Source: Polyangiaceae bacterium
GTDB lineage: Bacteria > Myxococcota_A > Polyangia > Polyangiales > Polyangiaceae
Assembly (NCBI GenBank): GCA_965222375.1
Contig: CBDCTZ010000008.1
Coordinates: forward strand, 224,001 to 288,000
DNA: 64,000 bases
Direction of reading: 5' to 3'
Positions 9,340 to 63,383 of this stretch are shown piece after piece. Below the pieces are notes generated by a model. It was not told the origin of the DNA and searched no databases. It was given only the letters and a program-made list of their open reading frames with translations. The translations under genes were made by a program, and so were the position numbers. Each line of letters opens with the position of its first letter. The first letter of the stretch is position 1.

Positions 9340-9358
9340 ACCGCGACGCTACGAGGCT

Positions 9359-9634
9359 TCATTCGCTCTCCCCAAACCGATCGTTGATCAGCTGACCAAT
9401 CTGCCGCACAGCTTCCTCCGCACCATCCCCTCGCGCTTCCACGCCAATCACGGAGCCTTGAGATCCACAAAGCAATAGCACGCCCATCACGCTCTTGGCA
9501 TTAGCCGCTTGCCCCTCGCGGCTCACCTCGATTTCACAGGGAAAGCGACACGCCAGTTGGACCAACTTGGTCGCTGCACGTGCATGCAGCCCAAGTCGGT
9601 TCTTGATTTCGAACTCGCCCCTCGCAGGCTCCAC
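9359..9634 (-). CDS. ptsH: HPr phosphocarrier protein
   Basis: GLHARAA and NAKSVMGV motifs. Confidence 0.95.
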   Translation of the reverse strand: MEPARGEFEIKNRLGLHARAATKLVQLACRFPCEIEVSREGQAANAKSVMGVLLLCGSQGSVIGVEARGDGAEEAVRQIGQLINDRFGESE

Positions 9635-29567: not shown

Positions 29568-30860
29568 ATGGCAGAAATGGCGGGCGGATCGCGACGCGGA
29601 TTCTTGGGAGCCAGCCTGAGCTTCGGCCTGGGGCTCCTCGTGGGCGGACGCCTGGGGGCGCCTCGAGCCTTCGCGCCGGGATTGCCCATGCCCCTCAACG
29701 AGGACGAAACCGAGTACGTCACCGAAGCACTGGCGGCCCTGGACCGCACCAAGATCTGGGATACTCACGTACACATCGTCGGCTTGGGTCGAGGCGACAG
29801 CGGCTGCTGGGTCAATCCCAAGAGCATGAGCCACCTGCATCCGCTGAGGCGGCTGCGCTTCGAGATCTACCTACACGCCGCAGGAGTCACGGATCTGGCC
29901 CGAGCCGACGAGCTCTACGTCGCCCGCTTGTTGGAGCTGTTTCGGTTGGCCAACCCGACCGGCAAGATGCTCGGCCTGGCCTTCGACTACGCCGTCGACG
30001 AAAACGGACAAGAGACGCCCAAGTACTCGGAGTTCTACACGCCCACCGAATACGTCCTTCGTCTCGCCAAGCAGTACTCGGAGATCCTGCCTTGCGCCAG
30101 CGTGCACCCGTACCGCAAAGATGCCTCCGATCGCTTGCGTCGCTTCGTTCAAGAGGGCGCCATCGCGGTCAAGTGGTTGCCCAACGCCATGGGCATCGAC
30201 CCTCTGTCGTCGAAGTGCGACGCCTTCTACAGGACGCTGCAGGAGCTCTCCATTCCCCTGATCTCCCACGCGGGTGAGGAGCAAGCCGTCGAGGTCAGCG
30301 GCTGGCAGGAGTTCGGCAACCCACTGCGCCTACGGCGCGCGTTGGACGCAGGAGTGCGGGTCGTGGTGGCCCACTGCGCCAGCCTGGGCGACGTGGAGGA
30401 CCTCGACGCGGGGCCGGGCCAGGAGATCTCGGCCTTCACGGCCTTCATGCGCCTGTTCACGGACAAGCGTTACAAAGATCTACTCTACGCTGACATCTCC
30501 GCGATGACGCAGTTTTCTCGATGCGGCCGCCCTCTGCGCGAGATCTTGCTTTCCACGGATTTGCACCCGCGACTGCTCTACGCCTCGGACTACCCCCTAC
30601 CCGCCATCGACCCCTTGGTCTCGACGCGGATCTTGGAGCGCGAGGGCTATCTCACACCCGAAGATCGCGAGAAGTGCAACCGCCTATATCGGAAGAACCC
30701 ACTGCTCTTCGACCTGGTGCTCAAGCGCAAGCTGCGCCTCGAACACAAGAACAACACCCACGTCTTTTCTCCGGCCGTGTTTCAAACCGCCAACTTCTTC
30801 TCCCCCCCGCCCGCGGCGGCTGCGCCAACCCCGCCCGTAGCCCCCGCGGCCCAACCCTAG
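29568..30860 (+). CDS. Tat-exported amidohydrolase family protein
   Basis: SRRGFL Tat motif; DTHVH, SVHP, SHAG, AHCAS, YASDYP. Confidence 0.85.
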   Translation: MAEMAGGSRRGFLGASLSFGLGLLVGGRLGAPRAFAPGLPMPLNEDETEYVTEALAALDRTKIWDTHVHIVGLGRGDSGCWVNPKSMSHLHPLRRLRFEIYLHAAGVTDLARADELYVARLLELFRLANPTGKMLGLAFDYAVDENGQETPKYSEFYTPTEYVLRLAKQYSEILPCASVHPYRKDASDRLRRFVQEGAIAVKWLPNAMGIDPLSSKCDAFYRTLQELSIPLISHAGEEQAVEVSGWQEFGNPLRLRRALDAGVRVVVAHCASLGDVEDLDAGPGQEISAFTAFMRLFTDKRYKDLLYADISAMTQFSRCGRPLREILLSTDLHPRLLYASDYPLPAIDPLVSTRILEREGYLTPEDREKCNRLYRKNPLLFDLVLKRKLRLEHKNNTHVFSPAVFQTANFFSPPPAAAAPTPPVAPAAQP

Positions 30861-31531: not shown

Positions 31532-31605
31532 CGGGGTGTACCTCAACCTGGTAGAGGGCCGGCTTTGGGTGCCGGACGTTGAGAGTTCAAATCTCTCCAC
31601 CCCGA
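31532..31605 (+). tRNA. tRNA-Pro (TGG)
   Basis: Full cloverleaf: CGGGGTG/CACCCCG acceptor, CCTC/GAGG D arm, CCGGC-TTTGGGT-GCCGG anticodon arm, GAGAG-TTCAAAT-CTCTC T arm; CCA not encoded. Confidence 0.97.
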
Positions 31606-32925
31606 CTGGTTTTTCCACTTCGCCTTGCCCCGTTTGGACACAGCTCCTGTCCGAACGCCAACGCGGAGCTTTGGCAACGCCGCCTCAGGGAGGGCCCGAA
31701 TCCTGCCACCGCTCTGGAGATAGCGCTGGTGCGCCTCCAGTGAGGCGTGCCCTGCCAGAGCTGTGGCTTGCTGGACATTGACGTCTGCGTCAGCCAGGGC
31801 CTGCGAGTAGGCCCGGCGCCAGCTGTGAAAGTCCACGGGCAAAGTGAAGTCGGTTTCGACGAACAGCTCCCGTTCCCGCGGCGTCATTTCGCGCTTCTGC
31901 TTCCAAGCCATCCGAACCAACTTGCGGCGGTTAGACCTGATGGTTTCGCGCTTCTCTAGCCCGTCGACCCCGAAGGCGCGCCGCAGGTCACGACGGAACG
32001 CCAGGGCGTGGCTCGTCTTGCCCTTGGGCTCCCCGGCCCGCTGTCCACGCCTCGACGGGAACAAGTGGCCCGTCGTTGGACGCCCTGCCCGCTCCCACCA
32101 GTCCCGCAGGATCGGCCGAAGCATCTCCGGCACCTCCAAGAGTTGGGGGCGCCGGGTCTTGCGCCTCGGTGCCCAACCCCACGTAAAGCCCGCGGCGGTG
32201 CCACCAGGGCCGGGCTCAAGGTCAAAGGCCTCCCAACACAGCGTGTGCAGGTCGCCGGTGCGCAGCCCGCCGAACATCCGTGCGATGCAGGCCATGGTTT
32301 GACGCTCCAGCACTCCATTGCGCCATTCCTTCTCAGGATGCTCCCAGGCCAGGTAGACCGCGAGTTCTTGGTCCGTCAGAACGGCTCGCTCTTTCCTAAC
32401 CGCCTCGGGAAACTTCGGCATGGTGACCCCATCCGCGGGGTTCGCATCGACGGCACCCTCGCGGACCAGCGCTGCGAAAACGTTGCGGAGGTCTTGCTTC
32501 AGGTGTGTGACGGTCTGCCTCGACTTGCCAGCGGCCTTGCAGTCGTCCAGCACGGTGTTGAGGTCGGTCGTTGGGATCTTGGTGACCTCGGCGTCCCAGA
32601 TCGCCGTCGCGTAGGCCTTCAGCCTCGCGATCTCGTCTTTGGCTCCGACCACGCCATCCGAGACCCGCGCCTCGTGCACGCGCTCCGCAACATAACCGAA
32701 CGGCTCGGCCCGCGCCGCGGTCTCAGCGGTGGGAACAATGCCTCTCTCAGCGTCGGCCACGAGCTTCGCTAGCTTTCGCCGTGCAAGTGTCTTGTTCGCT
32801 GTTCCGAGTGGGAACCAGCGTTTCTCTTTGACAGGTTTCCCGTCGACGTAGCCGACAACGACGGGGATGCGTGCGGCCCAGCCTGCCTTGGTCCAGATCA
32901 GTGTGCCTGTTGGTTTTCGGGGCAT
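31543..32925 (-). CDS. int: tyrosine recombinase/integrase (reads through attL into the tRNA antisense)
   Basis: GGLRTGD (R), DFHSWRR (HxxR), LAGH, HQRY (Y); N-terminal arm-binding-like domain. Confidence 0.93.
   Translation of the reverse strand: MPRKPTGTLIWTKAGWAARIPVVVGYVDGKPVKEKRWFPLGTANKTLARRKLAKLVADAERGIVPTAETAARAEPFGYVAERVHEARVSDGVVGAKDEIARLKAYATAIWDAEVTKIPTTDLNTVLDDCKAAGKSRQTVTHLKQDLRNVFAALVREGAVDANPADGVTMPKFPEAVRKERAVLTDQELAVYLAWEHPEKEWRNGVLERQTMACIARMFGGLRTGDLHTLCWEAFDLEPGPGGTAAGFTWGWAPRRKTRRPQLLEVPEMLRPILRDWWERAGRPTTGHLFPSRRGQRAGEPKGKTSHALAFRRDLRRAFGVDGLEKRETIRSNRRKLVRMAWKQKREMTPRERELFVETDFTLPVDFHSWRRAYSQALADADVNVQQATALAGHASLEAHQRYLQSGGRIRALPEAALPKLRVGVRTGAVSKRGKAKWKNQSGWRDLNSQRPAPKAGPLPG
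31562..31614 (+). repeat. attL core (3' part of tRNA-Pro plus 9 nt)
   Basis: GCTTTGGGTGCCGGACGTTGAGAGTTCAAATCTCTCCACCCCGACTGGTTTTT, identical to 45457-45509. Confidence 0.95.
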
Positions 32926-32939
32926 GTCAGGTCCTCTAG

Positions 32940-33866
32940 CTAGATGCGGTAGGGCGCCTGTGAAGGCCGAACCAGATCCGGCGAATACCCATGTGTTTTG
33001 AGCAAAGACCGAGCCCCGTGTGGTCCAGTTTCGGGATTCTGTAGCGGACCAAGTATCACGCTCTCCAGCTCAAATTGCCGTCCCCTCGCCGCCGGGATCT
33101 TCACGAAAGGGACAACTCCGGTCGCCCGCGCGCGATGGCACACCAAGTTGGTCTTGAGTGACCCCGCAGCCAAGAGCCTCCACTCGCGTTCCTCTGCGAA
33201 CGCGGAGTGCTTCGCTCTCGGCACAAGGAGGGCAGCCTGACGGAGCATTATCACCACCGCACGCTTCGCAACCGGGACCACGTCGGACACGTTGCGGTCC
33301 GAGACGAACTTGGCGAAGGACTCGGCTAGACGGCGAAACTGATGTCGCATCCGCGCCTGGAGCTTCTGCTCATCGTATTCAACCTTCGCAAGCATCAGCG
33401 CCAACGAGTCTGGCGTGAGTTCCACGCCTTCTTTCGGCATGGGGAGTTGCGCGAAGCCAACCGAGAAGCCCGCACCACCACTTGCATAGCCACGCCACTG
33501 GCTCAAGAGGTCGCCATCCTCAGAGAACGACGCGAGGAACAGATCCGCGACCTCACTCAACGGGACCTTCTTATGGGCCTCGCAGAACTTGCGCAACAGT
33601 TCGTCCGCAAGGTGGTTGCCGGTGGTGACCGTCTCCGCTGCAGCGTCCACCAGACGCTGACCGAGTTTCAGTTCCTCACGATCGTTCAGGTGCAGCGCGT
33701 GTGTCGCCCAAATCTCGCCTTTCTCGATCATTCCAACGAACCCCGTCGCGTCGGTGTAGTGGTAGAGCGGCACGTTCTGGGTGTCGTCGAGTTCTTCCAG
33801 CGAGAGCGCCTCTTCGAGCTCGACGAGTAGTGATTCCTCCTTTGAGTTCGACTCGGAAACTGTCAC
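32940..33866 (-). CDS. DUF2971 domain-containing protein
   Basis: LYHYTD..G..IWAT..LND..E, SFSEDGDLLSQWRGY, KHSAFAEEREWR. Confidence 0.85.
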   Translation of the reverse strand: MTVSESNSKEESLLVELEEALSLEELDDTQNVPLYHYTDATGFVGMIEKGEIWATHALHLNDREELKLGQRLVDAAAETVTTGNHLADELLRKFCEAHKKVPLSEVADLFLASFSEDGDLLSQWRGYASGGAGFSVGFAQLPMPKEGVELTPDSLALMLAKVEYDEQKLQARMRHQFRRLAESFAKFVSDRNVSDVVPVAKRAVVIMLRQAALLVPRAKHSAFAEEREWRLLAAGSLKTNLVCHRARATGVVPFVKIPAARGRQFELESVILGPLQNPETGPHGARSLLKTHGYSPDLVRPSQAPYRI

Positions 33867-33932
33867 GGCCGCGCCTCTGTGAGGGCATGCGCTTCCGTGG
33901 CTGCTTTCTCCGTCATGGCACTTCTCCTGGCC

Positions 33933-34118
33933 TCAGCGCTTCCGCTTCGTCTTGGGGCGGGCAGCGGCCCTGATCGGCACACCGAGCTGTACGGCGTAGG
34001 CCCTAACGGCCCGCCGCACGATGTCCGAGCGCTTCAATCGCTCGACCTGTGCGCAAGCCTCCAGCAGCTCCAGGTCATCCGGAGGGAACTTCACACACAC
34101 CGTGGTCAGATCGGCCAT
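33933..34118 (-). CDS. ribbon-helix-helix (CopG-like) DNA-binding protein
   Basis: TTVCVKFPPDDLELLEACAQVERLKRSDIVRRAV beta-alpha-alpha pattern. Confidence 0.7.
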   Translation of the reverse strand: MADLTTVCVKFPPDDLELLEACAQVERLKRSDIVRRAVRAYAVQLGVPIRAAARPKTKRKR

Positions 34119-34229
34119 GGAAGACACGGTAATACTGTGTCTTCCATGAATCAAGCACGAGATGCCAAAAAACGGCCTTCAAGCAAGCGCATGTGTCGTT
34201 CCCGTTGAACGCGGTAGGATGTCCACGAG

Positions 34230-34754
34230 ATGACCGACCGGAGCGACCCGCTCAACCAAGGAATCGAGAAGGCAGTCCCACCTCGCAAGCAACCACACTG
34301 GTTCTGGCAGGGCCTGAGTACTGGTGTCGTCGGGGGACTCCTCGGCGCGGGAGTCGGCATAGTGGGTGGCGTCTATCACCTAGGAAAACTCGAAGAACGG
34401 CTCGACACAATCAGGGCAGATGTCACCGGCAAGCTGGAGGCGGTGCGAGCAGAGGTGCGCGGGAACAGAACACTCATCGAAAACCACAAGGCCTGGCACG
34501 ATGGGCGCGCGGGCAGTCCAGTGCACGCAGCGCCAATGCCATCGGCCAACCCGCCTGGGAAGCGCGACATGCCTTGGACACCGGAGTTCCGTAAAGCGCG
34601 AGAAGCGTATTGCACCAAGCGCTGTGGTCAGAAGTACCCTGAGACCACGTGCCACGGAGAATGTCGTCAGCAGTTCCACGATTGCGGCATGGGCTGCAGA
34701 GCAGACCCAAAGGACCCGTGCTTCAAATCTTGCGTGAAAGCGCTGAATCGCTAG
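34230..34754 (+). CDS. membrane-anchored protein with Cys-rich C-terminal domain
   Basis: Gly-rich TM, short coiled coil, 8-Cys tail CTKRC..TCHGEC.. Confidence 0.6.
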   Translation: MTDRSDPLNQGIEKAVPPRKQPHWFWQGLSTGVVGGLLGAGVGIVGGVYHLGKLEERLDTIRADVTGKLEAVRAEVRGNRTLIENHKAWHDGRAGSPVHAAPMPSANPPGKRDMPWTPEFRKAREAYCTKRCGQKYPETTCHGECRQQFHDCGMGCRADPKDPCFKSCVKALNR

Positions 34755-34775
34755 GACAACCGACGGACGTGCCTG

Positions 34776-35663
34776 ATGAGGGACTACGAGCTTGACGAAC
34801 TGAAGGAGTTGTCCAAGCGGCTCGATGCCAAGTCGACCCTCCGGGAAGATGAAGTCAAGGTAAAATCGCGCACGGGTTGGAGCGTGACCGTGGAGGCACC
34901 TTCCATTGAACACTTGAACGTAAGAAGCACAGACCGACGGCGGGCTCGACTCACTCTCAAATCCGCACTGATCGAGCAGCTAGGCGAGCGCGGTCTCCTT
35001 CGGCCGAGCGAGCTGGATGACGTTCAATACGGCTACGGGGATGCGGCAACCCACAACCAAGAGGTGTTCGAGGACCTCTCCGGCATTCTTGAGCAAGGCC
35101 GGGCGGAAGAAGAGCTTCAGAAGTGCCTTGGGCGACATCCCGACATCTGGCGCTTTCTCGTCGGAACGAGGCCGCAAGTTGTCGACAAGATGCCACTTGG
35201 GCAGGCGTTTGTAACGGACTTCGTTGTGTTTGGCGCCGTCCTATGGGGTCAGTCGGAGACACCGACGGCAACGTTTGTGGAGATAGAGCGCGCTGACGCG
35301 AAGCTGTTCACCGCGAAAGGCGATCCTACGCGCGAACTGACGCACGGATTGCGCCAACTGCGAAACTGGAGGCAGTGGATCGCGGACCACAAGCAACAGG
35401 TGCGCGAACACCTGCTGGAGAAGACGCACCTTTCGTGGGAGCGACACGGCTACGAGGGACGGAGCGCTGGTGTTCCTGCGTACGGCTTCGCTGACGAATA
35501 CCTTCTGGTCATCGGTCGCAGGGGAAGCATGACTCCCGCCCAACGTTGGCAGTTGCAGCAGCTGTCTGCGGAACTGCCGAAAACGAATATCGTGACGTAC
35601 GATCTACTGCTGGACGTAGTTTGCCCAGAAGCTCCCTGGCCTCGTTGGATGGTCGAGGACTGA
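34776..35663 (+). CDS. Shedu (SduA)/DUF4263-family nuclease, copy 1
   Basis: EEELQKCL..HP, TDFVV, FVEIER..KLF, LTHGLRQLRNWRQWI, LLVIGRR, IVTYDLLL: DUF4263 motif order. Confidence 0.8.
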   Translation: MRDYELDELKELSKRLDAKSTLREDEVKVKSRTGWSVTVEAPSIEHLNVRSTDRRRARLTLKSALIEQLGERGLLRPSELDDVQYGYGDAATHNQEVFEDLSGILEQGRAEEELQKCLGRHPDIWRFLVGTRPQVVDKMPLGQAFVTDFVVFGAVLWGQSETPTATFVEIERADAKLFTAKGDPTRELTHGLRQLRNWRQWIADHKQQVREHLLEKTHLSWERHGYEGRSAGVPAYGFADEYLLVIGRRGSMTPAQRWQLQQLSAELPKTNIVTYDLLLDVVCPEAPWPRWMVED

Positions 35664-35796
35664 CGGCCCCAACAGCCGCCGAACCTCGATTGTCGCTGCC
35701 CGCAATAGTCCGCAGGCACCTGCTTCGCACTCGGCGCATTGACGCGGACATGGCCTGCCGTTCCAATGACTGCCGTTCGACACGAAAGGCCGAACC

Positions 35797-36684
35797 ATGG
35801 GCGATGACGAGCTAGAAGAACTGGAGCACTTGGCGAAACGTCTGGATCCCGACGCGAGCATCGTAGAACACGAGACGGACACGCCGCCCGCTCCCAAGTG
35901 GGTCGTGACTGTCGATGCGCGAACGTTGGAACCGGTGGAAATTCGATGTGCGAGCCGATCGCATGCCAGGCGTACTCTCAAGTCGTCCCTCCTTGAGCTA
36001 CTGGGCGAACGCGGGATGCTTCGCGCGCCCGAGGTCAACCGAGAAAACTGGGACCAGTCTGTTCCAGGAATGCAAAACGAGAAGGCGCACGCCGAGCTCC
36101 TAGACGTGCTCGCGAGCGGACGAGTCGAAGAGGACCTTCAAAAGTGTCTTGAGCGACACCCCGATATCTGGCGCTTTCTCGTCGCAACTAAGCCGCAGGT
36201 GGTGAACAAGATGCCTCTGGGGCATGACATGGTGACCGACTTTGTCGTTTTCGGCGCCGCGCCCTGGTCTCAATCTCAAATGCCGACGGCGACGTTTGTC
36301 GAGATTGAGCGCGCTGACGCAAAAATGTTCACTGCGAAGGGTGATGCGGCGCGGGAATTGACTCATGGCTTGGGCCAACTTCGAGATTGGAAACGGTGGA
36401 TTGGCGACCACAAGCAGGAGGTTCGGGAGTACCTCCTGGAGCACACCGCACTCAGCTGGGAGCGACATGGTTTCGAGGGCGAGTACGGCATGCCCCCATT
36501 TGGATTCGAAGACCGCTACCTACTTGTCATCGGCCGCAGGGCGAGCATGACGTCGGCCCAACGCTTTCAGCTGCACAAGTTGTGCGAAGACACTCCCAAA
36601 ACCACAATCGTCACGTTCGACATGCTCCTTGACGTGGTGTGTCCCGAAGCGCCGTACTTTCCGCCCTGGATGTGGGACGACTGA
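35797..36684 (+). CDS. Shedu (SduA)/DUF4263-family nuclease, copy 2
   Basis: Paralogue of copy 1 with the same motifs (EEDLQKCL, TDFVV, VEIER, GQLRDW, VIGRR, VTFD). Confidence 0.8.
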   Translation: MGDDELEELEHLAKRLDPDASIVEHETDTPPAPKWVVTVDARTLEPVEIRCASRSHARRTLKSSLLELLGERGMLRAPEVNRENWDQSVPGMQNEKAHAELLDVLASGRVEEDLQKCLERHPDIWRFLVATKPQVVNKMPLGHDMVTDFVVFGAAPWSQSQMPTATFVEIERADAKMFTAKGDAARELTHGLGQLRDWKRWIGDHKQEVREYLLEHTALSWERHGFEGEYGMPPFGFEDRYLLVIGRRASMTSAQRFQLHKLCEDTPKTTIVTFDMLLDVVCPEAPYFPPWMWDD

Positions 36685-36765
36685 CACGGACTACCCCTCT
36701 CGCCAGCAGGCCTTGCTTCGCGAGAGGGTCTCGGGCTGGGTGGTCCGCAAGCCACACCTCACCGG

Positions 36766-37680
36766 TCAGGGAAGCGCGAACGTTGAGAGGTCGATAGGCT
36801 CACCAGTTGCCAGGTGAAGAAACGGCTTCTGGAGGCGACCAGCAGCTGCGGCGTACGCCTTCGGGCTTGGCATTAGCTCAGGCTCGCGCAAGCCCAACAC
36901 ACGCGCAAGCCCGGCAGCGGAGCAAGGAGCCAAGCCACACTTGAACAACTTCCTAGCACACGGTTCGAAACCGTCATGGACAGTTCCCCAGGGGAAAGCG
37001 TCAACGAACCCTGTGCCAGGTTCAGGCCGCAGCTTGCTAGCCTCAACGAGGCCGGCACGGACGGATGCCACGACCTGGGCCGTACACACGTCCGAGTTCT
37101 CATCGGTGGGAAAGTCGGCGATGAGCATCTTCATTTTCGTGGGAAATGCTGTCCAACATTTCGCTCGTTCTTGCCCGGTGCGCTTGCCGCCGGCAGCTTG
37201 GTAGCAAAGGCCGTGGCACGTCTGATCGTTGCAACGCCTCTGGCAGCGTTCGTAACTCTCCGTGTACTGGAGAGATCCGTCGCGGCGTTCGTAGATGACG
37301 CCGCGGGCACAAGTATTGGCCTCGTTGTACTTGACCTCGGCGCGCCGCAGGATGGGGTAGCTGCTCCGCAGCGCGCGCGCCATTGCCGTGGCCTGCAGAA
37401 GCGTGCGTGGTTGCACTTCCGGAGTCTCCGCCGCCTGCGTGGCTTCCGGCTGTGCGCCACGCCGCGCGAGCAAGTAGACCGCAAGCCCCAGGACGACAAC
37501 AACTCCAATGAGCCAAGCACCTCGTGCTGAGTATCTCCTGCCGCTTTGTGGTCGTCCCGTTGGTCGCAGCCCTGACGGATGGTCCACGGCACGGTGCTGC
37601 GCGAGACCACTACCACAGTGCTTGCACTTGATCGCTTCCGTCCGGATCTCCTCGGCGCAGTATGGACATTTGCTCGTCAT
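36766..37680 (-). CDS. zinc-ribbon membrane protein with Cys-rich external domain
   Basis: CPYCAEEI..AIKCKHCGS, single TM, CQRRC..TCHGLC. Confidence 0.7.
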   Translation of the reverse strand: MTSKCPYCAEEIRTEAIKCKHCGSGLAQHRAVDHPSGLRPTGRPQSGRRYSARGAWLIGVVVVLGLAVYLLARRGAQPEATQAAETPEVQPRTLLQATAMARALRSSYPILRRAEVKYNEANTCARGVIYERRDGSLQYTESYERCQRRCNDQTCHGLCYQAAGGKRTGQERAKCWTAFPTKMKMLIADFPTDENSDVCTAQVVASVRAGLVEASKLRPEPGTGFVDAFPWGTVHDGFEPCARKLFKCGLAPCSAAGLARVLGLREPELMPSPKAYAAAAGRLQKPFLHLATGEPIDLSTFALP

Positions 37681-37763
37681 CTTCGCTCCGCTAGGTCGCC
37701 CAGCTAGACACGGTACTCGAATACCGTGGCCGCGACAACGCGACGGGGCCTACGTGGTCGCAA

Positions 37764-38027
37764 ATGCCGAAGCGCACGCGTTCTCCGGACACGACGCTGC
37801 TGCGCCAGGTGGGCGCTCGCGTTCGGCATGCGCGACTGGCCGCAGGATTGACACAAGAGGACGCGGCCGGACAAGCAGGAATGGACTGGCGTCGGTGGCA
37901 ACGTCTCGAGGCTGGCGAGGTTAACGCGACCATTGGCACGCTCGGACGCGTGGCGAATGCGCTTGGCTCGGATCTTTGGTGCCTTCTCGGGTCGACTGAT
38001 CCGCGAAAACCTCGACGCCCAAGGTAG
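37764..38027 (+). CDS. XRE-family HTH regulator
   Basis: VGARVRHARLAAGLTQEDAA..WQRLEAGEVNATIGTLGRVANAL. Confidence 0.9.
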   Translation: MPKRTRSPDTTLLRQVGARVRHARLAAGLTQEDAAGQAGMDWRRWQRLEAGEVNATIGTLGRVANALGSDLWCLLGSTDPRKPRRPR

Positions 38028-38112
38028 GCTCCTTGATCGGAGAGCGTCGGGAAGAAAGCGCCCAACTCGGCATCGCAGCAAGTCGTTACGCACGCAGCAC
38101 ACGTCAGCCCCA

Positions 38113-39723
38113 TCAGTAGGGACCTCGCCGCCAAGACTCACTGCTTTCTCGATCCGGGAGACGCGTACGTGTCCCGCAAACGATGACGCTACGACCCGCC
38201 CAACATTCGGGGTCATCCACGTACCCGAATGCCCCCCCCTGCGTGTGCATCGAACCGGGATCTCCTCCGGATTGCGCCCCGACCGTCGAGCTACTTCGCG
38301 AGGCGTGCCACAGCGCCAGCACGAAGGCCGACACGAGGTCACCGTGGGCTCCGCCGCGGCGGGGCGAGGTTATCTTGAGCCCGCCGCCAGTCGTTGGCTG
38401 GCTTACGACCTCGCCAAGCTGCACCGCAAGGCGCGTCAAAGTGCTCGGAATTCGGATGCGCCCAGCATGCAGCAGCTCACGCGCGACGCCGTACGATCGC
38501 GCCTTGCCCATCTGGCCACCCGGAGCCTGATACAGCTGTAGGTCGTGGGAGGTCGCCGCCTCGCGGACAGCTTCCAAGTAGAAAGCGTCGCTGCTGAATC
38601 CCGAGCCGCCATAGTCCCTCACCATCTGGCAGAAGCCGCCAGTGACCACACTCGGCACCAGAGGTTTGCCCTTGGCCGGCCTGCGCTCGAAGGCGGAACA
38701 GACGACGTACGAGGGCCGATTCTCAGAGCTCGCGGCGACCACAACACCCGCTGCCGCATCCTGACGGGCTGCGAAGTCGTAGCCGGCTCCGACCACCCAA
38801 TGACCAAGGTTCGAGAGCGAGTCGAGGGCGACCGGACACGGCAAATTGTCATCGAGCGCGTCCGAAATCGCGCCCCTGTCGAAGTACGCACCTGCACCAC
38901 CGGTGAACGGCACACAGTCGAACTCGCGCGCAGCGTTCAGCGGATCTCGGACTCGCTCGGCCTCAACAACAGCCCGAATCTTTGGACTATCGGGACGCAT
39001 CAGCTCGGTCGGAGCAACGCACGCCAGTGCTGAACTTGGCGAGCCGAGGTTTTGGCGGACGAGGTCATGCAGCAAACCCGACTCCAACCATGCAGTGCTG
39101 ATAACGCACAGAACTCCGTCGGCGACGATTCGCACGGCGAGCGCACGGAACAGCTCTGAATCGTTGATCTCCCCGCTGTCGCCGTCGCGGAAGAAAGCCG
39201 ACTCGTCCATCAGTCCAGCCAAGAGCGTGCGACCTCGTAGCGCCGACCCGCCGCGCGTTGCCGGCAGGGCAGTCACAACCACGCTGTAGCCGTCAGGTCG
39301 CCTGATCGTGAGCGAGTCAGAGCTGCGCCCGGCAACGAACCGCGCAAGGTCAGGCGACGCCATGGCCGCCCCCGCCGCGTAGCGCAGGCCCTGACGCGCC
39401 AATCGCATGTCCGGAGCTACAATCGGGCAGAACCCAAGTTCGCCCGCAGCAAGGCCCGCACAACTTGCGGTGAAAGCTCGATACAACAGGAACAAAGAGC
39501 AGAGCCAGGTACCACCCGCACGTGCACCCTTTGTCACTGCGAATACTCCACGCGCCTCCAACGGCACCGTGTAGACATCGCCAAACAGCTGCCGGGCGTG
39601 GTCGCGCGCCGCCCCAGTCAGGTCGCATGGCTCGACGGCGTCAAATCCCACGCGAGCGAGAACCCGTTGCGCGGGCGTAAGATCGACACGCAGAACGCAG
39701 TCCGCGAACTCTTCGAAGCGCAT
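38113..39723 (-). CDS. terL: phage terminase large subunit
   Basis: LTPAQ, deviant Walker A KGARAGGT, RGRTLLAGLMDESAF Walker B, VISTA coupling motif, AGYDFA..D and HGDLVSA nuclease motifs. Confidence 0.8.
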   Translation of the reverse strand: MRFEEFADCVLRVDLTPAQRVLARVGFDAVEPCDLTGAARDHARQLFGDVYTVPLEARGVFAVTKGARAGGTWLCSLFLLYRAFTASCAGLAAGELGFCPIVAPDMRLARQGLRYAAGAAMASPDLARFVAGRSSDSLTIRRPDGYSVVVTALPATRGGSALRGRTLLAGLMDESAFFRDGDSGEINDSELFRALAVRIVADGVLCVISTAWLESGLLHDLVRQNLGSPSSALACVAPTELMRPDSPKIRAVVEAERVRDPLNAAREFDCVPFTGGAGAYFDRGAISDALDDNLPCPVALDSLSNLGHWVVGAGYDFAARQDAAAGVVVAASSENRPSYVVCSAFERRPAKGKPLVPSVVTGGFCQMVRDYGGSGFSSDAFYLEAVREAATSHDLQLYQAPGGQMGKARSYGVARELLHAGRIRIPSTLTRLAVQLGEVVSQPTTGGGLKITSPRRGGAHGDLVSAFVLALWHASRSSSTVGAQSGGDPGSMHTQGGAFGYVDDPECWAGRSVIVCGTRTRLPDRESSESWRRGPY

Positions 39724-39848
39724 GGCGTCTGTACTCCTTTCGACAAGTGCGCTTCTGGCAACCGCTCAGACGGCCAATGTCCCTGGCTGTCCGAGCGGCA
39801 GGGCCGCGACTTCGACCCTTCGCGGTGGAGCCTCCGCTGCCAAAAAAC

Positions 39849-40457
39849 TCATCTCCAACGCAGACCGAGCCACTCCTCGCATTGATAGCCAGCGAGTCCT
39901 GCGTCGTGAACCGCTCTGCGGAACGTCGCGGCAAACTCGCGGTACCGGGGTTGGACTCGGCCGGGGCTGCAATCGCGTAGGCCGTGCTGCTTGCAGAACT
40001 GCTCCAAGCGCGCCGCCGCGCTTGACCGCCGGGCAACGCAGCTCAGCTCTTCACGCACTGCATCAAGTAGCGCCATTGCCCGCGTTCCGAAACTCTCCAG
40101 GCTCAGCTCTGGCTCCCCCCAGGCCACCGCCGCATCCTCGTCGGCTGCGTCTAGTTGGGCGCGAAAGCCCACGTCTTCCCATCGACGCTCGGAACGCGCG
40201 AGTGCCTCACTCGCCAACCGATGTTGCGTACGTGCAACGTCAATCTGCGCCTTCGCGGCTGCCACGCCGCTTGCATCCAACCGACCGAGAGCCGCCTCGG
40301 TTGTTGCGTGTTCGGCTGCGGCCACCGCCTGGGTAGTCTCCGCTGCCAACTCGTCAACGCGCTCGCGCTCGCTCTCGATGCGCTCACGGAAGGCGCGGCT
40401 TGCGCGCCCAAGCTCTTCGTCGGCCGCGTCCGCCGAGGACGAAGTTGCCGCACTCAC
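39849..40457 (-). CDS. hypothetical coiled-coil protein
   Basis: Ala/Glu-rich helical ORF coupled to 40454-40792. Confidence 0.55.
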   Translation of the reverse strand: MSAATSSSADAADEELGRASRAFRERIESERERVDELAAETTQAVAAAEHATTEAALGRLDASGVAAAKAQIDVARTQHRLASEALARSERRWEDVGFRAQLDAADEDAAVAWGEPELSLESFGTRAMALLDAVREELSCVARRSSAAARLEQFCKQHGLRDCSPGRVQPRYREFAATFRRAVHDAGLAGYQCEEWLGLRWR

Positions 40458-40792
40458 AGTCTGCCTCCATCGATTACTCGGCGCTGCGAACGAAGCCGGC
40501 GCGCGTGCCTAATTTGCGCGTCCAGCGGCATGCTTGCGAAACTCGCGTCTCGAGCGCACATGAAGTTGATCAGCTTCTCCGTAACGTTTCGCCCGGCCGT
40601 CGTCGAAAGGTCCACCGGTTCGTTGGTGTCCCGTTCATTCTCTTCCAAACGGGTGACAAATATTGCGAGCGCTCGCGCCACCGGCAGGCTTCGATCCTGG
40701 GCGCTGAGCGTCTGGTAGACGTCCGCCAGAGAGTGGTTGTGAAGCTGTTCGGCGAGCGCCCCAAGGTCTATCCTGTTTAGAGTTCGTCGCAT
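40454..40792 (-). CDS. hypothetical protein
   Basis: Overlapping chain of minus-strand ORFs in the element. Confidence 0.55.
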   Translation of the reverse strand: MRRTLNRIDLGALAEQLHNHSLADVYQTLSAQDRSLPVARALAIFVTRLEENERDTNEPVDLSTTAGRNVTEKLINFMCARDASFASMPLDAQIRHARRLRSQRRVIDGGRL

Positions 40793-41493
40793 GATTTGGT
40801 TCTTCCCTTGTGATTCGGGGCGCCTCCCGAGGTTGTTTCTGTATCGTTGTCGCTAGAGGCCGCTGATGGACGCGCTGAGAGCGTTTGGGCACCGTCGGTG
40901 CTCGGGTGCGCCGTCAGGGCGGAAGGCTCGCCAGCGGGCCCATCAGAGCCCCCGATGGACCACCAAGCCGGAGCCGGAGCGCTCTTCACACGTGCCTCGG
41001 CCTCGCGTGCGCAGAGTTCGTGAGCCGCAAGCAGGTTCTGGCGGCTGTCATTCGCAAGCCTGCTGCCAAGCTGCACTTCGCCCAGAACCTCAAAGGCAAA
41101 TCGGCTCGCAGCCAGCTGAAGTGCGGCAGACGCGATGATGCTCGATGGTGCCGGTCCACACTCGCCGCCCCCGACGCACTGAGCCAACCGCCGGACATGC
41201 AAGCGCCGGAAGGCCTTCGCAGCACCCGCGTATCGCTCAAACCGCGGATCCGCGAAGGTGTCTCCCAGCGCAACCCGCCGAGCCAGGCGCGACTTCCCCG
41301 CTCTCGCCTTCCCACCCAGGGCCGACAGCGCCCGGTGGCTTTCCGCATCCGCGGGGCGCCCATTGGCATCGCGGCGAATCTCCGGTTCGCGTGGCCGGTT
41401 CAGCGCCGCCACGCCGGCCGGCAGTTCATCCGCCGACAGCACCTCCACTCGGGGCACACCGGCGCCGTTTCCATGGCCACTGCGCAGGCTCAC
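40777..41493 (-). CDS. hypothetical protein, candidate small terminase
   Basis: RRDANGR..ALGGKAR basic N-terminal motif, helical core, upstream of terL; function is inference; GTG start chosen. Confidence 0.4.
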   Translation of the reverse strand: MSLRSGHGNGAGVPRVEVLSADELPAGVAALNRPREPEIRRDANGRPADAESHRALSALGGKARAGKSRLARRVALGDTFADPRFERYAGAAKAFRRLHVRRLAQCVGGGECGPAPSSIIASAALQLAASRFAFEVLGEVQLGSRLANDSRQNLLAAHELCAREAEARVKSAPAPAWWSIGGSDGPAGEPSALTAHPSTDGAQTLSARPSAASSDNDTETTSGGAPNHKGRTKSCDEL

Positions 41494-41779
41494 TGGGAGC
41501 CTCCGCAAGTGCGCGAAACCATTGGGGCCACATCGCTTTGTCCAAACACTCGTGTCCGAACGCAGCCGGAAACGCCTGCAAAGGAGCTACACGGAGCTCC
41601 TGAACGCCGGCTGAGCGAGCCGACGTGCGAAGGCTCATGGGGCAACAACTTCGCGCCCAGCGCCACGGCATGCGCGGCGCCGTGATCCGCTACGCTGCCG
41701 CAGCCGCCGAACTTCCGGGTTCGCGCCTGCGTATGTCGCCGGGGGGGGCAAGGTCGACTCCCGACTTTCGGCTCAGTGC

Positions 41780-41880
41780 TGACGCCACTGACAGACCTGA
41801 CACGCTCTCCAAAGTCACGGGGAGCGCGCGCGCGCGCGAATGCTTCTTTGTGAAGACCGTCAACCGCGTCAGGCTCGTCA
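41780..41880. other. candidate replication origin: symmetric iteron arrays
   Basis: TGAC at 41780/41789/41798 mirrored by GTCA at 41859/41868/41877 around an alternating GC run (41824-41838), right after the helicase gene. Confidence 0.6.
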
Positions 41881-43242
41881 ATCTTCATGGTCGATCCCCG
41901 TTGAAAGCTCGACGGCGTACCGCCGGGCGCGGCCATCAGATCTCGATGGCAGCCCAAGCAGCCGCATGCGTTCACCAAAAGTGTTACTGGCGACGGGTCG
42001 GTGGCCATTCTCGCCCGCCCACGTGCGATACGCCCGGTAGAGCTTGTCGGCAGCCATGCCCTCGATTACCGGTGCATTGAGGGCAAGCTTCCTCGTCGAC
42101 GCCTCCACGAACGCGCGAACCTGATCGGCGCGAGCTCTCCAGCGATCCTTTGCTCGGACCGAGCTATCAGGCACCGTGAACATGCCGTTTGCCAGGACGC
42201 GCTGCGCGCCACGGAGCATCCAGCTGACCACTGCGGCCCCGTCACGACGCAGGATCTCGTCAGCCAAGTTCACATTCTGTTCGGTCTCATCGAAGATGCG
42301 GTTGAACTGCAAGACCATGAGCCGACGCCAGAAGCCGTGCGTCTGGTCCGTGGTCCCGGGCAATCGGTTCGCGCTGTAGATGTGACCTGCGACCGGCTTG
42401 AAGCCGAAAGGGCTCTGACGAATTGCACGCGCCGTCGTCGTGTCGCCTGCCACTACCGACTTCCAGGACTCGGAATCCAAGATGTCTGCTTCAGGAAGTT
42501 CGGAAACCACATTCAGCAGCTTCCCGGCGAGAGCCGCCCGCCGATACTCTTGGCCGATGTCCTGTGGCGCGATGCTACAGACACTGTTCGGCGGCATGCT
42601 TCGTTCGGCAACAGCAGCCAGCACACCCTTCCCGTTCGCGCCGTCGCCCACGAGCACGAGTGCACGCTGAAAGCGAGTAGCCAGGCCGAGCAGAGAAATG
42701 CCGAGGTACTCCTGCACCAGCTGTACTTTCTGTTGGAGATCGGAGTCGCCTCGAAATACAGAACGAAAGAACTGCAGCAGCGCCACCGGCTCCGAATCGA
42801 AGGTGTAGCCAAACCTGTACGCGAACCGTGCCCGGTGCTCAGGACAGTGCTCATGCTGAATGATCCGGTCGCCCGTCACCTCAACGAATGAAGACGCGAA
42901 CGCAACGCCTCGCCGAGCCTCGTCGAAGAAACGCGGATCCGCGAGCTGGTCGGCCGCTAGTTTGAGCGTACCGCCTACGTCGGAGGCCTTTAGGCGCAGA
43001 GGCTTCTTTTCCCCGGTAACCTTGGTGCCAGCAAAGCCCTGCACGATTCGGCTGAGTCTGGTGGGCTCCACCCGGTCGAAGACGCCGCGACTCGCAACGT
43101 ACTGGTAGACGAACCCCTCAGCGAACGTTGTGCACGCTTCAGCCGTGAGCTTCCCAACGAGACGGTCCGCACACTCAACGTGGTCTCCGCGCGCAAACGG
43201 TGTACGGTCGAGCGGGGTCACCTTTGGGGCCAGCACGGTCAC
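41878..43242 (-). CDS. P4/D5-family SF3 helicase without primase domain
   Basis: D5_N-like region, GDGANGKG Walker A, LAGKLLNVVSE, HIYSANRLP, GFWRRL, C-terminal wHTH. Confidence 0.9.
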   Translation of the reverse strand: MTVLAPKVTPLDRTPFARGDHVECADRLVGKLTAEACTTFAEGFVYQYVASRGVFDRVEPTRLSRIVQGFAGTKVTGEKKPLRLKASDVGGTLKLAADQLADPRFFDEARRGVAFASSFVEVTGDRIIQHEHCPEHRARFAYRFGYTFDSEPVALLQFFRSVFRGDSDLQQKVQLVQEYLGISLLGLATRFQRALVLVGDGANGKGVLAAVAERSMPPNSVCSIAPQDIGQEYRRAALAGKLLNVVSELPEADILDSESWKSVVAGDTTTARAIRQSPFGFKPVAGHIYSANRLPGTTDQTHGFWRRLMVLQFNRIFDETEQNVNLADEILRRDGAAVVSWMLRGAQRVLANGMFTVPDSSVRAKDRWRARADQVRAFVEASTRKLALNAPVIEGMAADKLYRAYRTWAGENGHRPVASNTFGERMRLLGLPSRSDGRARRYAVELSTGIDHED

Positions 43243-43745
43243 TTCGCTCTCCGGAGCTGTTCCACGGCGCTCGCAGCGTCGATGGCTCCAACGCGGAGCG
43301 CAGCCGCCACCGACTGGCTCAGATTGATCAGTCGCCTCCGACTCGCGAGCTCCTGCAGGCTAGCGACCAGCTCCTCCAGACCACGGCGCGACCTGATTGC
43401 CGGTGCCACGTCCAATTCATCCTGGACACGTCGCGCGCACCACGCGCGATCAAGCCGAACGCAGACAGCGGCAACTCGGTCCGAGCCAGCAGGACTGTCG
43501 CAGTCCTGAACCCCGAGCAACACTTCCCGCGCGAGAGGATCCAGCAGCCACGCAAGCTCCACCTGGTCTGGGGCAAGCGCACCCGCGAAGATTGCATCCA
43601 GAGCAGACCATTCACCAATGCGATCACAAGGCAGCGGCGGCGGTCCAAGCGTATCCGTCAGTCGCAGATCTCGGCGCATGCGCCGCAGCTGCTGCTCTAT
43701 CGCCGCAAGGGAGTCGACCGAGCCGGGTGCCGCACGCATGCTCAT
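43239..43745 (-). CDS. stand-alone DnaB N-terminal-domain-like protein
   Basis: PPLPCDRIGEWSALDAIF..LLDPLAREVL..LQELASRRRLI parallels the DnaB-NTD pattern. Confidence 0.5.
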   Translation of the reverse strand: MSMRAAPGSVDSLAAIEQQLRRMRRDLRLTDTLGPPPLPCDRIGEWSALDAIFAGALAPDQVELAWLLDPLAREVLLGVQDCDSPAGSDRVAAVCVRLDRAWCARRVQDELDVAPAIRSRRGLEELVASLQELASRRRLINLSQSVAAALRVGAIDAASAVEQLRRAK

Positions 43746-44068
43746 CTTTCGGCACCCTCAACGACGCGCAGCCCACCGCGTTTCTGCTGCCGGCGTATCC
43801 AATCGATTACTGCTTCGAGCTCGAACCTGGCGGAGTCCCCAAGCCTCAGCTCAGGAAAGCTTGCCCGCTTGCGCAGACGGTCGAGCGAGCCCAGGCTGAC
43901 CCCGAGGGCGCGCGCGAGTGCGGCCCGGTCCAACAGTGCTGGCACCTGCTCCTCCTCCGGGACAAGTAGCACGCGTAGCCGGGCCGCCAACTCGGGGTCC
44001 GATTCCAGCACCGCGACAGCCTCAGCAAGAACCAACGATGCCACCGAAACTCGGCGAGGCGTGTTCAC
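43742..44068 (-). CDS. AlpA/excisionase-like HTH protein
   Basis: LLDRAALARALGVSLGSLDRLRKRASFPELRLGDSARFELEAVIDWI. Confidence 0.8.
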   Translation of the reverse strand: MNTPRRVSVASLVLAEAVAVLESDPELAARLRVLLVPEEEQVPALLDRAALARALGVSLGSLDRLRKRASFPELRLGDSARFELEAVIDWIRRQQKRGGLRVVEGAER

Positions 44069-44283
44069 CGACGCCCCACAACCCGCGCCATCAGTTGCGG
44101 CGGGCGGTGAATTCCGAGTCTCGCGGCGGCGGAATCCACGACAGCGTACGTCGCCAACGCGACAATGCGTACTTGTCCTGCGTAGCAACGCCGGATCGTC
44201 GCAATCCCGTGACCGGTCTCAATAACGAGGTGTGCTACCTGGAGATCCGTGAGTTTCGGAACGGTAACGTCGGTGTCCTGCAT
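44065..44283 (-). CDS. small HTH-like protein
   Basis: VAHLVIETGHGIATIRRCYAG; GTGA coupling to next gene. Confidence 0.45.
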   Translation of the reverse strand: MQDTDVTVPKLTDLQVAHLVIETGHGIATIRRCYAGQVRIVALATYAVVDSAAARLGIHRPPQLMARVVGRR

Positions 44284-45456: not shown

Positions 45457-45509
45457 GCTTTGGGTGCCGGACGTTGAGAGTTCAAATCTCTCCACCCCGA
45501 CTGGTTTTT
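45457..45509 (+). repeat. attR core
   Basis: 53-bp perfect copy of 31562-31614. Confidence 0.95.
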
Positions 45510-53601: not shown

Positions 53602-54543
53602 ATGGCGTCCAACGACGGCAGTAACGACTTTCCCGACGAGGAAGAATTCGAAGGGGATCGCACCGCAATCGTTAACCTGCGCGAGCTGCGCCGCTCCAGC
53701 ATGCCGGCGGGCCCCGACCGACATGTGATCGTGCGCATGGATGCGGCCAGCGTCGGGAAAGTGATGACCCTCGACGGCAACGAGTACCGCCTGGGAAGGC
53801 ACCCGAGCTGCCAAGTCGTACTGAACGATGACGGGGTCAGTCGACGCCATGCCCGCATCGCCAAAGATGGCGGCAGCTACGTGCTAGAAGACATGGGCAG
53901 CGCCAACGGCACGTTCATCGCAGGCAAACGCATCGACAGGCAGCCGCTCCGCGACGGCGACGTATTCCAACTCGGCCCGAACGTGATGTATCGCTACACA
54001 TTCACGGACGCGAGTCAGGAGCGCATGCTGCAGCAGCTCTACGACGCCAGCGTCAAAGATGCCCTCACGGGCGCCTACAATCGCGAACACTTCGAGGAGC
54101 GCCTCAAAGTGGAAGTGGCCTACGCCAATCGCCACAGTACGACGGTTTCGCTGGTGATGTTCGACCTGGACCACTTCAAGAAGGTCAACGACACCTACGG
54201 CCATCAAGCCGGCGACGCGGTGCTCGTGGCGGTGTCGAAAATCGTTTCCCACGGCCTACGCACCGAAGACGTGTTTGCTCGTTATGGCGGGGAAGAGTTC
54301 GCCATCGTGCTGCGGGGCATCGATCTCAAGGGCGCAGCCGCCGTCAGTGAACGGATTCGACAGCGCCTGGCCGCGAACCCGGTGCCCTTCGAACAGCACC
54401 GAATCGAAGTGAGCATGAGCGTGGGCTGCGCCGCCCTCACCTGCTGCCCGGAAGTGTCCACGACCACTCTGGTCGCGATCGCGGATCGGCGCTTGTACGC
54501 TGCCAAGCGGGGCGGTCGCAATCGAGTCGTCTTCGAAGGCTAG
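53602..54543 (+). CDS. FHA-GGDEF diguanylate cyclase
   Basis: FHA GR..SRRHA..SANGT; DLDHFKKVNDTYGH, RTED I-site, RYGGEEF. Confidence 0.93.
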   Translation: MASNDGSNDFPDEEEFEGDRTAIVNLRELRRSSMPAGPDRHVIVRMDAASVGKVMTLDGNEYRLGRHPSCQVVLNDDGVSRRHARIAKDGGSYVLEDMGSANGTFIAGKRIDRQPLRDGDVFQLGPNVMYRYTFTDASQERMLQQLYDASVKDALTGAYNREHFEERLKVEVAYANRHSTTVSLVMFDLDHFKKVNDTYGHQAGDAVLVAVSKIVSHGLRTEDVFARYGGEEFAIVLRGIDLKGAAAVSERIRQRLAANPVPFEQHRIEVSMSVGCAALTCCPEVSTTTLVAIADRRLYAAKRGGRNRVVFEG

Positions 54544-62880: not shown

Positions 62881-63360
62881 AGGTGGCTGCTGAAGAGCGG
62901 ACGCGTCGTGGACTCGGGGGGCCCGTGAGATGTTTATGCGTGGGCTCGCGGGGCCTCGCAGCGCCGGACCCGCTGGGCCGCGCGTGCGATCTGTGTGCCG
63001 CGTGCCTCGCGCGGTGCTTCGCTAGGTACACATCGCGGGGGAAGGGTCCCCCGCCGACCCCCCTCGCTCCGGGGCCGCGGCCCCGGTCGCCTTCCCCTGG
63101 TCTAGGTGACTGCTGAAGAACAGACGCGTCGTGGACTCTGTGGGGCCCGTGAGATGTTTGTGCGTGGGCTCGTGAGGCCCAATAGCGCCGAACCCGCTGG
63201 GCCTTGCGTGCGATCTGTGTACTGCGTGCCTCGTGCGGTCCATCGCTAGGTACACATCGCAGGGGAAGGGTCCCCCGCCGCGCCCCCTCGCTCCGGGGCC
63301 CCGGCCTCGGTCGCCTTCCGCTGGTCTAGGTGACTGCTGAAGAGCAGACGCGTCGCGGAC
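62881..63360. repeat. ~223-bp imperfect tandem repeat (2 copies plus start of a third)
   Basis: Units begin AGGTG(G/A)CTGCTGAAGA at 62881, 63104, 63328. Confidence 0.9.
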
Positions 63361-63383
63361 CAATTGGTGCAGCCGCCCGCCCT

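Follow-up and report, generated by a model that had tools for sequence, protein, structure and literature searches.

Tandem E-x-E Shedu-type nucleases with dsRBD-like N-terminal domains in a satellite-like island of a Polyangiaceae bacterium

The two genes and their nuclease core

The present study deals with a pair of adjacent genes, Shedu A and Shedu B, found at positions 34776-36684 of a 64,000-nucleotide (nt) stretch of contig CBDCTZ010000008.1 from a Polyangiaceae bacterium, the whole stretch being referred to below as the window. Both genes are open reading frames (ORFs) of the same strand and both encode proteins of 295 amino acids (aa; Table 1). The ORF listing and a BLASTP comparison (177/296 identities, i.e. 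60%, E 1e-128, far beyond chance) agree with an earlier note on this DNA, which had reported two 295-aa paralogues here; its hand-made identity counts were reproduced as well, with 40/107 (37%) for residues 1-107 and 93/120 (77.5%) for residues 108-227. Divided by domain, the identity between A and B amounts to 47% (35/75) in the folded N-terminal domain—residues 1-75, hereafter the head—to 16% (5/32) in the linker formed by residues 76-107, and to 74% in the nuclease core, the last value being taken from the identity matrix of the family. The low identity over residues 1-107 thus reflects mainly the divergence of the linker. No promoter-like, sigma-70-like or terminator-like site was found in the segment 33800-38200. 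Among sequencing runs, four are listed with this sequence, all from a single study that may be the source of the assembly, and none of them is an RNA run.

Concerning the family assignment, both proteins exceed the gathering score of 27 of the Pfam family SduA_C (PF14082, formerly DUF4263) with their residues ~111-279, the alignments spanning profile positions 4-159 of 159, and at E <= 0.1 nine PADLOC SduA models are matched by A and eight by B. The DUF4263 core proposed in the earlier note is borne out by these hidden Markov model scans, both of them positive for both proteins. The 10.56-Mb genome contains no PF14082 match other than A and B; in PHROGs and NCBIfam, neither paralogue found a match. 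For the full-length AlphaFold2 model of B, built on an alignment of eight sequences, the best Foldseek matches are the Shedu of Bacillus cereus (8ti9_C, E 2.4e-05) and the SduA of Escherichia coli (8ps5_A, E 6.2e-04). With VIA-align, the E. coli SduA leads (8ps4_A, Z 12.3, 177 residues aligned, root-mean-square deviation (rmsd) 3.7), followed by the B. cereus Shedu (8ti9_E, Z 10.2; 8ti8_A, Z 10.1), and the Shedu structures score above FokI and further nucleases of the restriction type. When a profile built from 85 relatives was run against the Protein Data Bank (PDB), the B. cereus SduA (8ti8) was matched at E 1.4e-09. It should be pointed out that a PDB sequence search with B alone or with the eight-sequence profile retrieved no Shedu entry, its top matches—L29, SdeA and RBP2—being regarded as chance. 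Family, fold and motifs together support A and B as Shedu-type (SduA_C/DUF4263) nucleases.

As for the motifs, the accessible text of Gu et al. (10.1101/2023.08.10.552793) gives E204, D249, E264, K266 and Q295 as the residues of motifs I-IV in the B. cereus Shedu. All five positions are occupied in both A and B, by E111 (motif I), D148 (motif II), E169 and E171 (motif III, the latter at the position of K266) and Q194 (motif IV). Motif III reads V-E-I-E-R in both proteins (E169, E171, R172), and the profile alignment to the B. cereus SduA places 'vtDF...lVEiErp' opposite 'LVDF...LIEIKTP'. The earlier note was therefore right in seeing E-I-E-R where the canonical E-x-K is expected, as in L-I-E-I-K of B. 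cereus; the two proteins depart from the PD-(D/E)xK signature in the motif III lysine, which is E171 in both, with the other motifs present. In a set of 159 nearest Shedu sequences—the matches of the first search plus 150 best representatives—the E171 column contains glutamate in 155 and lysine in three, E169 is kept in 157, D148 in 153 and Q194 in 157. Across 85 diverse relatives, E111, D148, E169, E171 and Q194 are invariant. Since 155 of the 159 nearest PF14082 relatives share the glutamate, E-x-E was taken as clade-defining; it marks a clade within the Shedu family, gives no ground for exclusion from it and is nothing particular to the locus 34776-36684. Two further positions, His190 (149/159) and Arg247 (135/159), are co-conserved, the B. 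cereus SduA having glycine and methionine there; the B codons lie at 36364-36366 and 36535-36537 of the window. These two residues may compensate for the absent motif III lysine.

The N-terminal domain and the relatives of the pair

The earlier note had also recognized, in the first ~70 aa, the alpha-beta-beta-beta-alpha pattern of a double-stranded-RNA-binding domain (dsRBD) and had seen in it a sensor of nucleic acid. The pattern itself recurs in the AlphaFold2 models, both in the full-length model of B and in the head folded alone (residues 1-78, same eight-row alignment), in which the elements are H2-16, E21-27, E34-40, E47-51 and H54-71. The head model reached a predicted local distance difference test score (pLDDT) of 90.3 and a predicted template modelling (TM) score of 0.78, the five models ranging from 87.0 to 90.3 in pLDDT. 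With Foldseek against the PDB, dsRBD-bearing proteins account for 36 of the 45 listed rows—RDE-4, MLE, R2D2, RNase III, ADAR, Staufen, PKR and others—at a probability of 0.95-1.00 and a TM score of ~0.5-0.6, the best E being 8.2e-03 with no row at 1e-03; the rows without a dsRBD concern T7 Gp1.2, proteins of the SRP Alu domain and one designed binder. With VIA-align, dsRBDs make up 29 of 50 rows, the best being DCL4 (Z 8.3), followed by Loquacious dsRBD3 (Z 7.7, rmsd 2.3 over 63) and HYL1 (Z 7.3, rmsd 1.8 over 60); ribosome hibernation factors occupy 14 of the 50 rows (up to Z 7.9) and T7 Gp1.2 also reaches Z 7.9, values below 8 being such as can stem from a common arrangement of elements. Because the order of strands and helices is that of a dsRBD, the models support a dsRBD-like fold of the head.

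A fold of this kind does not by itself establish that double-stranded RNA (dsRNA) is sensed. No sequence match to dsrm (PF00035) was obtained with the full proteins at E <= 0.1 or with the 78-aa heads at E <= 10. The RNA contacts of dsRBDs are made by a GPxH-type beta1-beta2 loop and by KKxAK at the start of alpha2. Such a loop occurs in none of the eight family sequences, in which the region is variable; at the N-terminus of alpha2, a basic R-x-R-[AG]-R-R stretch is conserved in the eight sequences, with R58 invariant. The net charge of the head across the family is -6, +2, -6, -4, -1, 0, -4 and -6, i.e. zero or negative in seven of eight. Among the best head matches are TRBP residues 291-365 (dsRBD3), Loquacious dsRBD3 and Staufen dsRBD5, dsRBDs that bind proteins and not RNA. 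Binding of dsRNA by the head is thus not supported. None of the terms dsRBD, dsrm and 'double-stranded RNA' appears in the supplement to Gu et al. (10.1101/2023.08.10.552793), the table of 7,687 proteins included.

The relatives that share this architecture are few. A search of 5.8 billion clusters yielded 12 proteins at E <= 1e-03, eight of which, A and B included, have the full architecture of 291-310 aa. With an exhaustive profile search, the number at E <= 1e-03 rose to 2147, of which 21 reach E <= 1e-30; among the best 150 of these 2147 proteins the head was matched only in the cluster of A, in P0007 and in P0101. The last (212 aa), considered as a second architecture with a head (E 1.8e-19) followed by a low-complexity tail, is probably a frame-shifted or mis-assembled member of the family and was rejected as an architecture of its own. 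Beyond the eight-member family, the nearest relatives are core-only proteins of ~200-240 aa, such as P0013 (232 aa, E 1.2e-84), which starts in the linker, and from these sequences the head-bearing family looks like a core-only E-x-E Shedu that gained a small head. None of 200 genomes of the same bacterial family contains a close relative of the pair, three of them having other Shedu types that match the core alone. Nine of 401 genomes of the phylum are positive for PF14082, with two matches in the present genome only and one each in the eight others. Searches with tblastn found no match in phages and, in plasmids, a single distant one to a Vibrio SduA (27.9% identity, E 2e-06). When residues 1-80 of B were submitted to a word-based search, B itself was the sole match, the method being insensitive since even paralogue A was missed, and the protein atlas scores of 0.76-0.78 lie below the meaningful level.

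With regard to the duplication, the identities of head, linker and core are 47, 16 and 74% for A/B, 53, 40 and 82% for P0002/P0004 and 44, 24 and 68% for P0007/P0008, the head being less conserved than the core in every pair of the eight family members. The N-terminal domains, described in the earlier note as divergent and diversified, therefore do not stand out, the gradient being family-wide and the divergence residing mostly in the linker; the gradient reflects a constraint acting on the whole family, with no paralogue-specific diversification. Four-fold degenerate sites at identical residues match between A and B in 8/19 cases in the head, 20/47 in the core and 4/24 in the C-terminal part, with a random expectation of 0.28. 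As this is near random, with synonymous sites near saturation, the duplication is old. Gene conversion as the cause of the better-conserved core was rejected, the four-fold-site identity being alike in the head and the core; the core is conserved by purifying selection acting at the protein level. The tree does not resolve the branching order of A, B and the clade of four relatives, which appear as a trichotomy. The longest contigs of the six relatives all differ (7231, 6704, 1337, 13858, 2014 and 1195 bases), P0001 and P0003—the pair described here—both having 518513, which hints at the six being solo genes without a tandem partner. In the literature on Shedu with paralogue, tandem or two-gene arrangements, no paralogous Shedu pair was found described.

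The island and its cargo slot

The pair lies in a 13.9-kb element bounded by a 53-nt exact direct repeat (31562-31614 and 45457-45509) that copies the 3' part of a tRNA-Pro gene, with an integrase gene beside that tRNA. From left to right, the element contains the genes of the integrase, a DUF2971 protein, a ribbon-helix-helix (RHH) regulator, ORF174, Shedu A, Shedu B, ORF304, a helix-turn-helix (HTH) regulator and a terminase-large-subunit-like (TerL-like) protein, then three unassigned ORFs, a D5/DUF5906 primase-helicase, one unassigned ORF, an excisionase-like HTH protein and another unassigned ORF before the right repeat (Table 1). Of the 16 island ORFs scanned, none matched a capsid or tail PHROG, and six had no match at all. 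Modules of replication and regulation are thus present—primase-helicase, HTH, RHH, excisionase-like and TerL-like—with no match to a virion structural protein, so that the element, as read from its gene content, is best called a phage-satellite-like integrated island.

A sister element adjoins a tRNA-Asp gene on another contig (C5) of the same genome. Compared by blastn, the segments 31729-34149 and 38141-41628 are 90.5% and 92.8% identical to it, respectively, whereas 34150-38140, the segment with the Shedu pair, has no match there, its place being taken by 3.8 kb of unrelated ORFs. The backbone being common to both elements and this segment replaced, the pair sits in a swappable cargo slot. 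Together with the attachment repeats, the integrase and the TerL-like and primase-helicase genes, this agrees with the view of the earlier note that the pair is carried as satellite cargo. Of 200 other genomes of the bacterial family, 37 contain homologues of the TerL-like protein (E <= 1e-20).

Table 1 Features of the gene pair and of the surrounding island, in window coordinates
Feature	Position	Strand	Evidence or remarks
tRNA-Pro (TGG), integration target	31532..31606	+	ARAGORN; Rfam tRNA 62.7 bits; 3' part = left repeat
Tyrosine integrase	31543..32925	-	Pfam Phage_integrase 7.6e-07; phrog_1 integrase 3e-24
DUF2971 protein, backbone	32940..33866	-	Pfam DUF2971 6.9e-08; within block 90.5% identical to sister element
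Ribbon-helix-helix regulator	33933..34154	-	Pfam RHH_1 6.2e-04; phrog_876 repressor 6e-05
Variable cargo slot (ORF174, Shedu A, Shedu B, ORF304, HTH)	34150..38140	.	blastn vs sister element
ORF174, orphan	34230..34754	+	Hydrophobic segment, Cys-rich tail; GC content at third codon positions 0.67, like neighbours
Shedu A	34776..35663	+	Pfam SduA_C 4.7e-13, 50.1 bits vs cut-off 27; PADLOC SduA 4e-16
Shedu A, N-domain (residues 1-75)	34776-35000		Net charge +2
Shedu A, linker (residues 76-107)	35001-35096		
Shedu A, SduA_C core (residues 108-295)			
A-B spacer	35664..35796	+	133 nt; AAAGG precedes B start codon
Shedu B	35797..36684	+	Pfam SduA_C 9.4e-15, 55.6 bits; PADLOC SduA 4.6e-18; structural matches
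Shedu B, N-domain (residues 1-75)	35797-36021		Net charge -6
Shedu B, linker (residues 76-107)			
Shedu B, SduA_C core (residues 108-295)			
ORF304, zinc ribbon + hydrophobic segment	36766..37680	-	Pfam Zn_ribbon_3 4.5e-06, just below cut-off; convergent with Shedu B
HTH (XRE-type) regulator	37764..38027	+	Pfam HTH_31 2.5e-10
Terminase-large-subunit-like, backbone	38113..39723	-	phrog_2 3.6e-09; Pfam Terminase_6C 0.0022, below cut-off; 93%-identical copy in C5
D5/DUF5906 primase-helicase, replication module	41878..43242	-	Pfam DUF5906 3.6e-11; phrog_864 DNA primase 1.7e-51
HTH / excisionase-like protein	43742..44188	-	phrog_668 1.9e-07; phrog_66 1.7e-05
Right attachment repeat, island end	45457..45509	+	Aligns with the left repeat over 60 nt at 95%, exactly over the first 53 nt

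Within the slot, ORF174 has no Pfam, PADLOC, PHROG or NCBIfam match and no homologue in the search of 5.8 billion clusters; ending 22 nt upstream of Shedu A, it is possibly co-transcribed with it. ORF174 and ORF304, which flank the pair, each contain a hydrophobic segment and have in common a cysteine motif RC...TCHG.C (10/23, E 0.009). The slot of the sister element (C5:185000-204500, positions 6928-10738) holds unannotated ORFs with no PADLOC match, candidates for cargo or defence genes, one of which (257 aa) gives a sub-threshold match to Mrr_cat (E 0.0096). In the backbone, the DUF2971 protein weakly matches the PADLOC model PDC-S31 (E 0.0019) and may be a backbone-encoded defence candidate, and the final ~20 codons of the integrase ORF overlap the tRNA-Pro gene on the opposite strand (31543-31606). 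Just outside the island, ARAGORN calls a tRNA-Phe of 91 nt (30725-30815, minus strand) within the 3' end of a 431-aa ORF, its odd size suggesting that the call is false or that the tRNA is degenerate or contains an intron. Three tandem repeats of ~223 nt (75-89% identical) followed by 18-nt tandem repeats occur at 62881-63447, and a further array of 18-nt repeats at 54543-54609.

What the pair may be

Shedu is described as a single-gene system, the N-terminal domains of which set what is sensed; a regulatory role of these domains is set out in the two structural studies (10.1101/2023.08.10.552793; 10.1101/2023.08.10.552762). Here, two adjacent paralogues take the place of the single gene. With the Shedu of B. 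cereus B4264 (8ti8/8ti9), the pair has in common the SduA_C PD-(D/E)xK core, in which motifs I, II and IV can be aligned, as can the leading glutamate of motif III, and also the general build, with the nuclease preceded by a small N-terminal domain and a linker, the core identity being only ~15%; that enzyme differs in having E-x-K, an sPC4/Whirly-like head, 382 aa and one gene, as against E-x-E-R, a dsRBD-like head, 295 aa and two genes. The E. coli SduA (8ps4/8ps5), to which the core is structurally closest, likewise has an N-terminal domain followed by a helical linker and DUF4263, but its Lys285 is catalytic, whereas motif III of the pair carries glutamate in the place of the lysine; its N-terminal domain (residues 1-145) acts as a DNA-end clamp and is presented in the accessible text (10.1101/2023.08.10.552762) as having no structural homology to other proteins. 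Outside the eight-member family, the nearest relatives in sequence are core-only ('Type 2') Shedu proteins with a length of 200-240 aa, for example P0013 and ~20 others at E <= 1e-30; they exhibit H190, R247 and the signature E-[IL]-E, but they do not contain the N-terminal 75-aa domain. KELShedu, as far as the accessible text goes (PMC12577705), is likewise a Shedu-type nuclease working with a second gene product; there, however, the partner KELA is described as a dsDNA-binding protein and no further DUF4263 nuclease, whereas the neighbour in the present pair is a paralogue with a complete set of active-site motifs. Finally, dsRBDs such as those of RDE-4, DCL4, Loquacious (dsRBD3), HYL1 and RNase III share the topology of the head (Foldseek probability up to 1.00, TM 0.5-0.6) and differ from it in the dsrm match, the conserved beta1-beta2 loop motif and the charge, as given above.

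Based on the family membership, fold, motifs, duplication age and island structure, all of them computed directly, it appears probable that A and B are two old paralogues, each a complete Shedu PD-(D/E)xK nuclease, which form an anti-phage cargo of the tRNA-Pro satellite-like island and have been kept for a wider set of triggers. Each paralogue would consist of the 75-aa dsRBD-fold head, an acidic and poorly conserved linker of ~30 aa and an SduA_C core of ~190 aa, and would assemble into a tetramer through the nuclease core, by analogy with the enzymes from B. cereus and E. coli. The head and the linker would hold the nuclease inactive until an infection cue, after which it would cut the invading DNA by means of an E/D/E-x-E/Q active site. 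For both of these enzymes, deletion of the N-terminal part is reported, in the accessible text, to give a constitutively active or toxic nuclease (10.1101/2023.08.10.552793; 10.1101/2023.08.10.552762). The differences between A and B are largest in the linker, with 16% identity, and in the net charge of their heads (+2 vs -6); the most likely gain from two copies would be a broader range of triggers or phages, with no new two-component mechanism.

Several observations weigh against this reading. The lysine that belongs to motif III in the B. cereus Shedu is a glutamate in the pair, and it is present in all three Shedu enzymes with tested active sites that were considered here (B. cereus, E. 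coli and Vibrio cholerae). Its mutation in E. coli SduA (Lys285) abolished the activity, according to the accessible text of Loeff et al. (10.1101/2023.08.10.552762), K557A did the same to the function of the V. cholerae VcSduA, and no experimentally tested Shedu confirmed as E-x-E was found in the literature; catalysis by the E-x-E form is assumed for this pair. The family with both head and core is tiny, and its eight sequences lend neither linkage nor function any comparative support; a locus search with the family alignment gave 68 genome-, 68 metagenome- and 33 viral-contig pattern matches, none of them confirmed. The full-length model of B is of moderate confidence (mean pLDDT 64.8), and the neighbouring genes of the pair have no PADLOC match at E < 0.001. 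The exchange of a lysine on which the enzymes of E. coli and V. cholerae depend is also what speaks for an E-x-E clade that, the pair included, no longer cleaves DNA and serves instead in nucleic-acid binding or regulation. According to the KELShedu paper (PMC12577705), a lack of nuclease activity is predicted for many small 'Type I' Shedu proteins. The acidic triad and the glutamine are, however, near-invariant in the 159 sequences, with H190 and R247 co-conserved, which fits a maintained active site. The E-x-E site of BamHI, the sole precedent to be named, indicates that a glutamate in place of the lysine is compatible with catalysis. Such a loss of cleavage is therefore given only a very slim chance.

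The hetero-oligomer raised as a possibility in the earlier note would, in its strictest form, be an obligate two-gene Shedu, i.e. a mixed tetramer of A and B in which the basic head of A and the acidic head of B form an asymmetric sensor, neither gene working alone. Both genes have long been retained intact, next to each other on one strand with 133 nt between them; their cores are 74% identical, so that the oligomer interfaces may still fit, and their heads carry different net charges. A prediction of the complex, made for one A:B pair with three runs and three controls, gave a median score of 0.38 (runs 0.20, 0.38 and 0.53) vs 0.00 for the best control and was graded as weak support; the runs agree in >= 67% of contacts, with a partner pLDDT of >= 71. 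Of 157 solved complexes, 116 attain the pass mark, as do 2 of 215 mismatched pairs, but passes at <= 0.60 comprise only 18 of the 157 solved complexes, plus both passing mismatches. Because Shedu homotetramers are among the solved structures and the cores are 74% identical, the score cannot separate hetero- from homo-oligomers, and the weak pass may reflect mere likeness. Every catalytic residue is kept in both proteins, with no sign of a split into enzyme and regulator; no two of the six relatives lie on contigs of the same size, which indirectly suggests solo genes, and each of the eight other PF14082-positive genomes among the 401 of the phylum has a single match. An obligate partnership is thus considered unlikely. 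Its more elaborate form, a heteromeric E-x-E Shedu with paired basic and acidic dsRBD-fold heads reading a structured nucleic acid that neither homomer reads—for example, a phage RNA duplex or a replication intermediate—is considered quite improbable. The nucleases could, alternatively, serve the island itself, either by cutting helper-phage DNA to favour the packaging of the satellite or in the replication or excision of the element. The TerL-like and primase-helicase genes with no capsid or tail match correspond to the layout of a helper-dependent satellite, and some satellites encode nucleases against their helper; yet the sister element, with a backbone 90-93% identical, does without the Shedu pair, which makes the pair dispensable for the life cycle of the element, and TerL-like homologues occur in 37 of 200 genomes of the family as opposed to close relatives of the pair in none of the 200. 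A role confined to the element is thus held to be highly unlikely.

Taken as anti-phage cargo, the pair is an unusual form of a known defence family—an E-x-E Shedu that bears a dsRBD-fold head and occurs as two old tandem copies in the cargo slot of a satellite-like element—and no new kind of system; the current understanding of Shedu is not overturned by it. It draws attention, however, to a large and apparently untried Shedu clade in which E-x-E replaces E-x-K together with the co-conserved histidine and arginine, and to a dsRBD-like head, a term absent from the table of Gu et al. A swappable cargo slot is revealed in a family of satellite-like elements common in this bacterial family, and the long-kept tandem paralogues bear on the question of whether duplicated sensors broaden the range of a defence nuclease or co-assemble.

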